Source: a virus (Duplodnaviria > Heunggongvirae > Uroviricota > Caudoviricetes). From it: DNA of 14,641 nt. The position numbers and the translations under genes were made by a program. The notes under the pieces were generated by a model. The model was not told the origin of the DNA. It searched no databases and was given only the letters and a program-made list of their open reading frames with translations. The stretch's first letter is position 1. Each line of letters starts with the position of its first letter. The stretch spans positions 1 through 14,641 of IMG/VR virus record IMGVR_UViG_3300012347_000520. One strand, 5' to 3'. Below, one piece after another: positions 2,273-8,165 of this stretch.

Positions 2273-3253
2273 ATGATTATTAACAAACAACTTAAATCCA
2301 TCCCATTCGATAAACTTTACCACATGTATGAAGAAGCAGCCGCTTCTGCAATTGCTGGTATTGAATCACACATCCAATCCAAGTACGATGCAGAAGTAGA
2401 GCGCTTAGAACAAGCCTATACAGATACTCACGAAGCTCCTAGTGAAGTAGGTTTTGGCGATCAGGTCGTCAGAGAAACTTATAACGCACATGAAGTACGT
2501 CGCAGAGCAGGTAATAAAGCAATTACCGACACTTGGATCCCTCGCTACAAATTAGGGTCATTGCTAATTGCAGTAATGCCTCAGATTATGGCTTATATCA
2601 CTCAAAAACCTTTTAGATTATCTGAGGTTTCTACGGTTGAGGGTAAGTGGATTAATGGAAAAACAATGCTCAAGAACTCCTTTGATTTTACCAGTGACTG
2701 GGATCGAGGACTTTACTGCTTTTTAATGTTAGACTCGCGTTCAGCATATTTACCTACGCAGTACAAAGGTGAGGGCAGACAATTCTGTAGTTTAGTTCCG
2801 CTAATTCCTTATGCGTACAAACTACACCACAAAATTAACTACTCCCAGTGGGATCGTAATACCTTACACTGGGTCGTAAATCCTAGTTTGTGTAATGCTA
2901 TGTTATACATTCCTGACAAAGCATACACTCGTGAAGAGCTAATTCACGCTAGAGAGCTTGGTTTAGTTTACCAAACAGGTGCCAAAGCAGGTGAATCACG
3001 TAATCCAGTTTCTACTTTTAAACTTTGGGCTACTAAAGGCGGATGTATGTCTGGTGTTCCTGATCTTGCTCAAGTAATGTACACTCAAATCTGGTGTGCT
3101 CACCCACAAAATCGTTCGCACTACATGGTCTTAGACCCTAAACACTGGGACACTATGCCAACACCGCTTATTAGCGAAAACATCTTTATGCCTCCAGAAA
3201 TCAAAGTTTCACAGCCTCAATTCACAGGCCTAGAACTGCCATGGGAGGTTTGA
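2273..3253 (+). CDS. homologue of the T5 pre-early ~330-aa hypothetical protein (gene 10-like); function unknown
   Basis: Recalled similarity in SLVPL...INYSQW, RNP, QIWCAH..R..YMVLD...WD.MP and terminal LPW motifs; no SD sequence visible. Confidence 0.65.
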   Translation: MIINKQLKSIPFDKLYHMYEEAAASAIAGIESHIQSKYDAEVERLEQAYTDTHEAPSEVGFGDQVVRETYNAHEVRRRAGNKAITDTWIPRYKLGSLLIAVMPQIMAYITQKPFRLSEVSTVEGKWINGKTMLKNSFDFTSDWDRGLYCFLMLDSRSAYLPTQYKGEGRQFCSLVPLIPYAYKLHHKINYSQWDRNTLHWVVNPSLCNAMLYIPDKAYTREELIHARELGLVYQTGAKAGESRNPVSTFKLWATKGGCMSGVPDLAQVMYTQIWCAHPQNRSHYMVLDPKHWDTMPTPLISENIFMPPEIKVSQPQFTGLELPWEV

Positions 3254-3859: not shown

Positions 3860-4650
3860 GCGCGTTTTTAACTCAACCTCAGGGCTTATAAAGCTGGTCT
3901 TCAGCCTGACCCTAAACCACGGTTACCTCGAGGGCACCATTACTGCTCGAGTTTACGGATACGGGGAGTTTTAGTTTTACGTCGGACGACGGCACGCAAA
4001 GCTTTTACAACCGGAGCGGCTTATGGTTGGGCTACAGTTTAGCCACTGCTACATGTGCTGCTCAAGTTTTATGACTTTGTGCAGTTTAGGGTCGGTGCGC
4101 TAGCGGGGTATCATCCCGCGTTACTGGCTAGGCCAGGTCTTAGATCAGATGATAGCGTCTGTATTTTATACTGTTCTTTCAGTTCCCAGTTTAGTCGTGA
4201 CCCGATCATAGCGGAGCGGGGCCTTAGGTATAGGGTAGGCTACCTAGGAGTTACTAGCTTCCATTCCAGCGTACGCGATGGCAGCTCATATGGGATTCGT
4301 CCTGACCCTAAACTGCGCCAGCGGAGTAGCGGGGAACTACTCGCACACTGGCCCGAGGCTTAGAGTTTCGCTGAAATTGCATCAGCTCATCAGAGGGATA
4401 GGGGGGCGGTGACTAGAGGCTTCGGTCACCATCAAGTTGTTATCTCTAGTCTAGGACTAGAGTCTCATAACACCAAAAAAAGTAGGGACAGCGACTCGAT
4501 TCGGCACTATTAAGACGCTATCAGCTTGCTATATGTTTTATGCTGTTCGCTGTCATCCCGTAAATAATTATAACACGAAACCGACTTTAGAAGAAAGTAA
4601 ATAATTTATAATGTTAGAGTCGGTTTCGGTTGTTATCTTGTTTTCGATAC
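3860..4650. other. ORF-free, GC-richer, multi-hairpin region (candidate structured RNA or injection-stop/origin-like DNA)
   Basis: Several stem-loops; three GACCCTAAAC sites; flanked by convergent promoters. Confidence 0.45.
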
Positions 4651-4654
4651 AATA

Positions 4655-4683
4655 ATTATATCAATAAAAAGGTCAAGCATCAA
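4655..4683 (-). promoter_or_regulatory. sigma70-type promoter with no downstream ORF
   Basis: Minus strand TTGATG-17-TATAAT. Confidence 0.6.
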
Positions 4684-5020: not shown

Positions 5021-5059
5021 ATGTCCTTTCGTTTTGGTTTCTGCGCTGTCTAAGTATTA

Positions 5060-5088
5060 ATTATACTATCAAAAGGGAACATCGTCAA
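5060..5088 (-). promoter_or_regulatory. sigma70-type promoter for 4709-5020
   Basis: TTGACG-17-TATAAT. Confidence 0.8.
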
Positions 5089-5203
5089 ATTCAAAAATTT
5101 CCGCTTGTTGGTTGGTATTTGGCAAATTTTTTGACAACTCTGTTTGTACAAATTCTTGGAACCACTGTTCCTGATTTAACATGAAAAAATCCGTGTCTTC
5201 CAT
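5069..5203 (-). CDS. 44-aa acidic peptide ending EIFEFDDVPF (SSB C-terminal tail mimic); not in ORF track
   Basis: MEDTDFFMLNQEQWFQEFVQTELSKNLPNTNQQAEIFEFDDVPF; AGGAG RBS; own promoter. Confidence 0.75.
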   Translation of the reverse strand: MEDTDFFMLNQEQWFQEFVQTELSKNLPNTNQQAEIFEFDDVPF

Positions 5204-5230
5204 AAGCCAGTATCTCCTGTTGATGTAATA

Positions 5231-5259
5231 ATTATATCAAAATCAATTCTGCACTTCAA
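5231..5259 (-). promoter_or_regulatory. sigma70-type promoter for the 44-aa ORF
   Basis: TTGAAG-17-TATAAT. Confidence 0.75.
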
Positions 5260-5546
5260 ATAAATAAATTTCAAGTTGACACTGCACTAAGCCTGTAACA
5301 ACATGGTCAAATTTGCACTTGACTGCGCACTGGCGCGGCACCACTAAAAATTTAGAATTGCCACTTTCCCACTGGCGCAGCGCGCTTGTGTAGTACGAAA
5401 GTACTCTTTTTCATAATGTGGCAGACCGCTTCATCAGGTGAAATTTTATGGTAATTTTTAATTTTGCATCAATAATTATTGATTATTAATTACGGGCGTG
5501 GCGCAAGAATCATGCCAGAGTAAATTACTCGGATATAAAAAAATTC

Positions 5547-7466: not shown

Positions 7467-8165
7467 TTATTTAGCTTGAAAGTGGTCACGGGTTTGAAAT
7501 TCGCGCCAGTTGTAAGGTGTAACCTTTTGTTTCCAATCGCGTTTTTTGATAATTTCGCGTAAAATCGGCAATTCAAAATCCCGCGCATCTTCTAAAGCCG
7601 TATGGGGTTCGTCTTTAAATTCGCCAGTAATAAACCCACAAACGATCTCGGCGTTTGTCTTAAAAGTCATATTGCCAAATTCAGTTGGGGCATTGAACGC
7701 ATGATTTTCTAAGCAAAATTGTTTGAATTTTTTAGTATTGCAAACATTACCAACGGCGGCCTGCCACAAACAAAAGTTATCAGAAAAACCGTCTAAATTA
7801 ATGCTTGTGTTTGCACATTTTGATTTATCAAAAGCCAAATTGTAAGCGGTCAAAGTTGGGTTATACTTGCCAATGGCTTGATTAATCCAGTTATTGATTG
7901 CAGAAACAGAAGCTAACATTCTAGAACCAGAATTAAGCATATCGTTGTATTTTGCGCGTTTTTCCTTGGCATATTGCAAAGACCAAAGACCCTTTGCATT
8001 TTTATCATAAAACAATTCGTGCGCGTCAAATTGATCTTTTACCAATACCGCGCATTGATTGTAGATTTTGCCTTCGCGATCACAAATTACAATGGCAAAA
8101 TCTGCCACAGTGTCAGCGATAGTTGTTTCAGTGTCAAGAATTGCAAAGAATTGTTTTTTAGCCAT
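7467..8165 (-). CDS. DEDDh (DnaQ-like) 3'-5' exonuclease
   Basis: ExoI LDTETT, ExoII AYNLAFD, ExoIII HTALEDA. Confidence 0.88.
   Translation of the reverse strand: MAKKQFFAILDTETTIADTVADFAIVICDREGKIYNQCAVLVKDQFDAHELFYDKNAKGLWSLQYAKEKRAKYNDMLNSGSRMLASVSAINNWINQAIGKYNPTLTAYNLAFDKSKCANTSINLDGFSDNFCLWQAAVGNVCNTKKFKQFCLENHAFNAPTEFGNMTFKTNAEIVCGFITGEFKDEPHTALEDARDFELPILREIIKKRDWKQKVTPYNWREFQTRDHFQAK

Follow-up and report, generated by a model that had tools for sequence, protein, structure and literature searches.

On the minus strand of the window (the whole stretch of 14,641 nt analysed here, which forms the first 14.6 kb of a 78.6-kb IMG/VR contig with ~40% G+C and an estimated completeness of 74%), a gene for a peptide of 44 residues is preceded by a promoter (P1) and a Shine-Dalgarno sequence, overlapped at its end by a second promoter (P2), and followed by a leader and the gene of a T5 A2-like DNA-binding protein (Table 1). 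The peptide is acidic, with a net charge of about -9 (family mean about -9.7), and contains eight aromatic residues among its 44. Its ORF, the AGGAG ribosome-binding site, the acidic composition and the terminal EIFEFDDVPF had been described in an earlier note, which is accurate in these respects once the strand is corrected to minus. The ORF is not unannotated, as had been stated there, since it has already been called as a hypothetical protein in public collections. Similarly, the consensus promoter reported in front of the gene is present, but with a score of 10/12 it is better described as near-consensus.

Table 1. Features of the peptide gene and of the adjoining A2-like gene, with positions in the window.
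Feature	Position	Strand	Remarks
Promoter P1 of the peptide gene	5231..5259	minus	TTGAAG, 17 nt, TATAAT; TG before the -10 box; 10/12
Shine-Dalgarno sequence AGGAG	5214..5218	minus	10 nt before the ATG
Peptide CDS, 44 aa	5069..5203	minus	ORF 5203..5069, TGA stop 5071..5069; starts MEDTDFF, ends EIFEFDDVPF-stop
Helix, codons 3-26	5126..5197	minus	acidic, aromatic, conserved; DFFxLxQEQWFxEFVxxELS
Linker, codons 27-34	5102..5125	minus	variable, disordered (predicted)
EIFEFD, codons 35-40	5084..5101	minus	dual-coded with the UP-like stretch and the -35 box of P2
DVPF, codons 41-44	5072..5083	minus	tip, selected as protein; SSB-Ct-like core
Promoter P2 for the A2-like gene	5060..5088	minus	TTGACG-17-TATAAT, 11/12; inside the tail codons
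Leader ACAGCGCAGAAACC of the A2-like mRNA	5036..5049	minus	identical or one base off in all relatives, then AAAGGACATATGATGAC
A2-like DNA-binding protein gene, 103 aa	4709..5020	minus	downstream of the peptide gene, co-transcribed

Relatives of the peptide gene are numerous. A word-indexed search returned 11-12 close homologues with 70-91% identity, IMG/VR holds four loci of the gene, and an exhaustive profile search yielded 32 short representatives (at 50% identity). With further loci recovered by a scan for the conserved leader downstream, 28 distinct DNA copies were collected, and the distinct protein sequences amount to 68, nearly all of 43-45 residues. The purine-rich Shine-Dalgarno sequence, the ATG, the length of 43-45 codons and P1 are all kept in the homologues, and in nearly all loci a TTGnnn-17-TATAAT promoter precedes the ATG by about 27 nt. 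Pairwise dN/dS values range from 0.13 to 0.42 in eight of the nine computable pairs. On these comparative grounds the ORF is a real gene and is probably translated. In the 78.6-kb contig it occurs as a single copy. Apparent longer forms of the peptide proved to be over-extended ORF calls which start too early (P0013), no genuine longer form being found, and two repeat proteins (P0016 and P0035) that had surfaced as relatives were discarded as false positives. Searches of Pfam, PHROGs, PDB sequences and the ESM Atlas returned nothing meaningful for the peptide, and Rfam gave only sub-threshold hairpin matches upstream of the ORF and none over it.

An AlphaFold2 model built with a 40-sequence alignment predicts one helix (residues 3-26, pLDDT 86-89) and no secondary structure after residue 26 (pLDDT 62-66). 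Within the helix F6 is invariant, Q11, W14, E17 and E22 are nearly invariant, and hydrophobic residues lie on all sides (hydrophobic moment 0.10). The linker is P/Q-rich in two distant members (L080 and L088). The view that the peptide is too short for an OB fold is in line with this model of a single helix and a disordered tail: the OB-fold ssDNA-binding domain of SSB (PF00436) is absent from the 44 residues, which have no Pfam or PHROG hit, and as modelled the peptide is not a member of the SSB family.

A second promoter inside the tail codons

The promoter of the A2-like gene, P2, is new here and was absent from the first description of the locus. Its -35 box is composed of positions 2 and 3 of codon 39, codon 40 and position 1 of codon 41, its -10 box starts 3 nt past the stop codon, and it scores higher than P1 (11/12 vs. 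10/12). It is present in 26 of the 28 loci, with a spacing of 17 bp in 25 of those, and in most loci the ORF ends 3-6 nt before the -10 box. Together with their A/T-rich upstream stretches, P1 and P2 form direct repeats ~171 nt apart, in which the stretch of codons 35-40 repeats the region upstream of P1. In this stretch EIFEFD is encoded by GAA ATT TTT GAA TTT GAC; codons 37 and 39 are TTT in all 18 loci with Phe at these positions, and codon 40 is GAC in all 17 with Asp.

Selection was computed by segment on 18 distinct 44-codon genes. The helix (codons 2-24) is under protein-level selection (pS 0.675, pN 0.262, pN/pS 0.39), the linker (codons 25-34) is neutral (pS 0.364, pN 0.378, pN/pS 1.04), the synonymous sites of codons 35-40 are frozen (pS 0.048, pN 0.096, pN/pS 1.99), and the last four codons (41-44) are again under protein-level selection (pS 0.441, pN 0.061, pN/pS 0.14). 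Because codons 35-40 are fixed at the DNA level by P2, they provide no independent evidence for mimicry or for a protein function, and their frozen sequence is explained by the promoter. The tip behaves differently. Its Pro is encoded by CCC, CCA, CCT and CCG and its Phe by both TTT and TTC, whereas the spacer of P1, which is non-coding, varies from locus to locus; by this evidence DVPF is selected as protein. Moreover, in a subgroup of loci with the ending LDVPF the -35 box (TTGATG or TTGATA) is shifted downstream by one codon, and the distance from the stop codon to TATAAT is larger by exactly 3 nt, which preserves the 17-bp spacing. The conservation of DVPF is not a by-product of the promoter, since the tip remains unchanged when the promoter register shifts by one codon. 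The proposal of the earlier note, a mimic of the SSB tail spanning the entire ending, can thus be kept for the conserved and protein-selected DVPF, but not for EIFEFD, which the UP-like and -35 sequence of P2 explains.

The locus represents a clean case of dual coding, in which one stretch of 30 bp serves as a near-consensus sigma-70 promoter and as a selected protein tip, and in which the two constraints can be separated codon by codon. It also carries a more general lesson, namely that a short motif conserved near the end of a gene may reflect the conservation of a promoter.

The same arrangement could be taken to mean that the ORF has no function in trans and acts only in cis: translated between two tandem promoters as a spacer or leader, it would tune the A2-like gene through its translation or through its Pro-Phe-stop ending. 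The direct repeats of P1 and P2 with the ORF filling the gap between them, the end of the ORF just before the -10 box and the minor tail types, which are plainly set by promoter bases, would suit such a role. We nevertheless consider it very improbable, because selection acts on the distal helix and not on the residues beside the stop codon: purifying selection is found 25-40 residues from the stop and the segment adjoining the tail is neutral, which is the opposite of known arrest peptides. Furthermore, the A2-like gene has its own promoter and Shine-Dalgarno sequence, so that coupling is not needed.

The leader of the A2-like gene is itself conserved. Its layout (5036-5065, minus strand) consists of TATAAT, 10 nt, ACAGCGCAGAAACC, 6-15 nt and AAAGGACATATGATGAC, and it is near-invariant even though the proteins of the relatives share only 40-60% identity. 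It could serve as an operator or RNA element in the control of A2.

The tip across the family and the C-terminus of SSB

The homologues bear out the expectation of a conserved tail as far as its tip is concerned, since 60 of the 68 members have the C-terminus D-[V/I/L]-P-x with the stop codon directly after it, which leaves a free carboxylate. Nearly all of these tip-bearing members (57 of 60) are 43-45 residues long. D(-4) and P(-2), the latter corresponding to P176 of E. coli SSB (the ssb113 position), are invariant in all 60. Position -3 is V in 52, I in seven and L in one, and the last residue is F in 45 (including the copy in the window), Y in three, W in one, L in six and Q in five. Most members have three to four acidic residues among the last ten. 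The tip is carried on a linker for which no structure is predicted past residue 26 and which evolves neutrally. Among the endings closest to the DFDDDIPF of E. coli is NFDLDIPF, which matches six of eight positions and stands behind a P/Q-rich linker.

The remaining eight of the 68 relatives keep the helix and have unrelated tails, some of which are set by the -10 box of the promoter. As far as the aligned sequences tell, the helix is the constant module of the family and the tip is a frequent, selected and replaceable one. The alternative tails end in ...EEILTCA or ...NPV (L014:3782-3955; L089, L093; P0033, P0039), and where the ending is NPV, the -10 box itself (GTA TAA T) is formed by the final codon together with the stop codon.

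The C-terminal tip of SSB serves as the central docking peptide in the replication, repair and recombination of bacterial DNA. A passage of PMC5872125 describes the hexapeptide DDDIPF as highly conserved in bacterial SSBs. In the crystal structure of RecO with the SSB C-terminal peptide (SSB-Ct), only Pro176 and Phe177 are well ordered; they lie in a hydrophobic pocket, and an Arg anchors the carboxyl end.[PMC3152348] A single change of either residue reduces binding about as much as the loss of all three Asp.[PMC3152348] In both the RecO and the ExoI complexes it is P(-2) and the terminal F that bind the pocket, and the aliphatic residue at -3 likewise belongs to the portion of SSB-Ct seated in partner pockets.[PMC3152348] The part of the peptide that is selected as protein, i.e., D, an aliphatic residue, P and a terminal aromatic residue, corresponds to this pocket-binding core, which is matched imperfectly across the family.

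Like the SSB-Ct of E. coli (...MDFDDDIPF-COOH), the peptide has a free C-terminus after Pro, with position -3 aliphatic and Asp invariant at -4, carries two to four acidic residues in the last ten, and presents its tip behind a disordered, sequence-neutral linker. Unlike SSB, it has neither an OB fold nor a DNA-binding domain, and the tip sits on a single helix of 24 residues. The family also differs from SSB-Ct in preferring V over I or L at -3, in ending in L or Q in 18% of the tips (11 of 60), and in having an acidic stretch that is co-determined by the promoter. A strict reading in terms of a Phe pocket is weakened by these L and Q endings, of which Q recurs in both tail subtypes.

Phage proteins with related tails provide further points of comparison. 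In phage T7, the acidic C-terminal tails of gp2.5 and gp4, which end in Phe, bind the T7 DNA polymerase. These are likewise phage-encoded acidic tails with a terminal aromatic residue, and in T7 they serve as docking peptides; they differ in belonging to large replication proteins and in lacking a Pro-Phe tip, whereas the tail described here belongs to a stand-alone early mini-protein. Prophage DUF669 ssDNA-binding proteins carry DDDIPF and were proposed to have copied the tip of the host SSB to plug into host DNA metabolism.[PMC13687109] This copying is the nearest published idea to an SSB-tip peptide, although the DUF669 proteins themselves bind ssDNA and the 44-residue peptide has no nucleic-acid-binding domain. 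No description of a stand-alone SSB-tip peptide was found in the literature searched.

Several other origins of the tip were considered. No OB-fold SSB is encoded in the contig or in four near-complete relatives, and no genuine longer form of the peptide exists among the sequences collected, which rules out a split-off SSB C-terminus. A copy of the tail of the phage's own SSB is excluded as well: the contig and all near-complete relatives encode a PC4-like protein of ~95 aa, which ends without an acidic-aromatic tip. A PC4-like protein is also present in T5 (PDB 4bg7, cited in PMC7549692). Among the ORFs of at least 30 aa in the 78.6-kb contig, no other acidic tail ends in such a hydrophobic residue. 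By inspection, a mimic of the FtsZ C-terminal peptide, which requires P-x-F-L and then basic residues, was ruled out, as was a beta-clamp-binding motif, the latter for lack of Q-L-x-L-F.

Endings of the form [DE][ILV]P[FYW] are rare, being found in 23 of 7054 mechanical ORFs from 0.94 Mb of mostly unrelated viral contigs; 19 of these belong to the family and four do not. An unrelated viral contig (L039, IMGVR_UViG_3300023371_001006) contains a mechanical ORF of 52 codons ending in ...EVEDDDLPF, which represents the terminal part of an SSB gene or else a further small tip-bearing protein.

Possible partners of the helix and the tip

In all relatives the peptide gene lies directly upstream of an A2-like gene, and every locus examined has P1, the peptide gene, P2 and the A2-like gene in this order, including loci with another type of tail. 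A natural fusion of the two was found in a contig of 528 bp (ENA contig k141_2342701), where an in-frame ORF (P0047, L011:188-469) combines the HTH N-terminus of an A2-like protein (~65 aa) with the peptide linker and the tip FEFDDVPF. A normal peptide gene stands before this ORF, and a further A2-like gene begins after it. Several base differences between the two stretches that encode the tail make a simple assembly loop unlikely. The fusion is known from this one case, and it gives a weak hint that the tip may work when tethered to a DNA-binding domain.

Such observations could indicate that the peptide associates with a phage protein or regulates it, the first candidate being the co-transcribed A2-like protein, one of four A2-like paralogues. 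The peptide might be a DNA-mimicking brake or an assembly factor for this protein, binding through its helix, its acidic tail or both. Any likeness to SSB-Ct would in that case be a coincidence, produced in large part by the promoter. The constant gene order and the fusion speak for this role, as do the helix being the most widely kept module and the fixation of half of the tail by the promoter. However, with the A2 promoter inside the ORF the synteny is forced anyway and is a weak sign of a physical link, the fusion is known from one very short contig, and the strong protein-level selection on the C-terminal D-V-P-F is left unexplained. A complex prediction of the peptide with the downstream A2-like protein, both with alignments, gave a score of 0.00, which is evidence neither way. 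On balance this explanation is doubtful, though it deserves serious consideration.

The early proteins of T5 suggest another direction. Those of the pre-early class target varied host proteins, e.g., FtsZ and Ung.[bioRxiv 10.64898/2026.04.02.716235] The peptide can be compared with the small pre-early proteins T5.007, Hdi and the Ung-dependent nuclease T5.015, which in T5 are early host-takeover proteins binding single host proteins, although it has no sequence similarity to them. Its gene is placed like T5.007, which in T5 is likewise small and lies upstream of A2, behind a strong early promoter. T5.007 encodes 83 aa without an acidic tip. A T5 counterpart was ruled out, since T5.007 is unrelated and no T5 ORF ends in D-x-P-F.

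One could imagine that the helix, acidic and rich in aromatic residues, lets the peptide inhibit something else in the host (a nuclease, a nucleoid protein, RNA polymerase, or a protein of restriction or defence), with the tip serving a pocket outside the SSB network. Its charge and its eight aromatic residues would agree with this, and so would the hydrophobic residues all round the helix, as seen in segments that fold upon binding, the position of the gene among early host-takeover genes (dNMPase, SprT-like, A2-like), the tolerance of L and Q at the terminus and the variety of host proteins targeted in T5. We judge such a target unlikely, considering that no match to any of these in family, structure or feature was found and that D-[VIL]-P-F-COOH is otherwise a hallmark of SSB tips.

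The explanation that we favour, if only tentatively and at somewhat less than even confidence, is a two-module early protein whose tip docks into pockets of the SSB-Ct type and whose helix binds a second partner or self-associates. Host RNA polymerase would transcribe the gene from the strong P1 once the DNA enters the cell, presumably early in infection. In the product, a flexible and sequence-neutral linker would join the tip D-V-P-F-COOH to the helix of residues 3-26, which is acidic and rich in aromatic residues. The tip would insert into the type of pocket that receives SSB-Ct on genome-maintenance proteins, a hydrophobic hole with a basic rim, for which ExoI, RecO, RecQ, PriA, RecG, chi, RNase HI and Ung are candidates. 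With its helix engaged by the second partner or by another copy of itself, the peptide would compete with SSB tails or function as an adaptor. In favour of this reading are the conserved gene, the modelled helix with its disordered tail, the protein-level selection on codons 41-44, the fit of the tip to the pocket-binding residues of SSB-Ct, the rarity of such endings, and the finding that neither the contig nor its near-complete relatives encode an OB-fold SSB or a PC4-like SSB with a tip of this kind.

The earlier note had proposed a decoy which titrates host replication or repair factors, or SSB-linked defences. The sharing of the pocket-binding core of SSB-Ct by the tip is consistent with that idea, but a pure decoy leaves the conserved helix of 24 residues unexplained, and a bare titrating decoy is disfavoured because this helix is conserved even in relatives with a different tail. 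Against docking of the SSB-Ct type in general stand the eight of 68 relatives that have the helix with unrelated tails and the lack of a counterpart in T5. If the two-module proposal is true, the mini-protein, in essence a helix bearing an SSB tip, would provide a minimal natural means of hijacking or blocking the SSB hub.

A variant that we find quite improbable is a detachable SSB tail. Here, the helix would clamp a tip-less DNA-binding protein of the phage (the A2-like protein or the PC4-like SSB), and the tip would recruit, in trans, SSB-interacting enzymes of the host to the incoming or replicating phage DNA. The fusion with the A2-like HTH would be the same device in cis.

The phage group and its early genes

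The phages bearing the peptide gene are uncultured freshwater T5-like phages, the titles of the MAGs naming lakes. The remainder of the 78.6-kb contig encodes a T5-like replication set composed of PolA, a primase, a DnaB-like helicase, a split NAD ligase, an SbcC-like protein and RNR. More than 100 homologues of the A2-like gene have precomputed PF26822 hits, and the A2-like protein matches phrog_1725 ('DNA binding protein', E = 1e-9) in PHROGs, with weak HTH hits besides. The same block in related contigs contains the T5-type small terminase (PF26823) and the T5 dNMPase (PF26880), and the early-gene company of the peptide gene is made up of dNMPase, SprT-like and A2-like proteins. No match to the peptide or to its A2-like neighbour was found by tblastn in 50,697 records of cultured phages, and megablast of the region against cultured phages returned nothing. 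Mis-binned MAG contigs gave no host signal, the matches being scattered over Saccharibacteria, Crocinitomicaceae, Actinomycetota, Polaromonas, Methylococcaceae and others.

The peptide had also been called pre-early. Two hallmark neighbours of the T5 pre-early region, A2 and dmp, are present, the former as the downstream PF26822 gene and the latter as the PF26880 dNMPase in the block of the relatives, and it is on the analogy with T5 drawn from them that the term rests. A1 of T5 has been reported in all Demerecviridae and is a hallmark of the family, and the pre-early (first-step-transfer) genes of T5 are set in a terminal repeat in front of a signal that halts injection. No A1 homologue was found in the contig itself or in four relatives that are 93-100% complete, the best match having E = 0.005 over 53 aa. 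Because A1 was not found and the genome termini are undefined in the assemblies, 'pre-early' is an analogy with T5 and not a finding.

Other features of the region are worth recording. A1 is undetectable throughout this lineage (G000 and its relatives G001-G004), including records rated 100% complete. A conserved protein of 232 aa, encoded next to the dNMPase (7467-8165, minus strand), shows by eye motifs like those of DEDDh exonucleases (ILDTETT near the N-terminus and HTALEDARD close to the C-terminus). Pfam gives no hit for it, and its one match in PHROGs, phrog_20187, has no assigned function. With the dNMPase, this protein might make up for the lack of the A1 nuclease. One of the A2-like paralogues always has as its neighbour a conserved gene of 276-339 aa without a family match (2273-3253 in the window). 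Just past the stop codon of the A2-like gene, a further promoter (TTGATG-17-TATAAT with TG, 10/12; 4655-4683, minus strand) is directed into an ORF-free, GC-richer stretch of 0.8 kb (3860-4683). Finally, upstream of P1, the region 5300-5400 of the window contains repeated motifs of the types CACTGGCGC(G/A)GC and GTCAA(A/G)T(T/G)TGCAC, with similar repeats in relatives (L012:3600-3760), and these are candidate binding sites for A2-like proteins.
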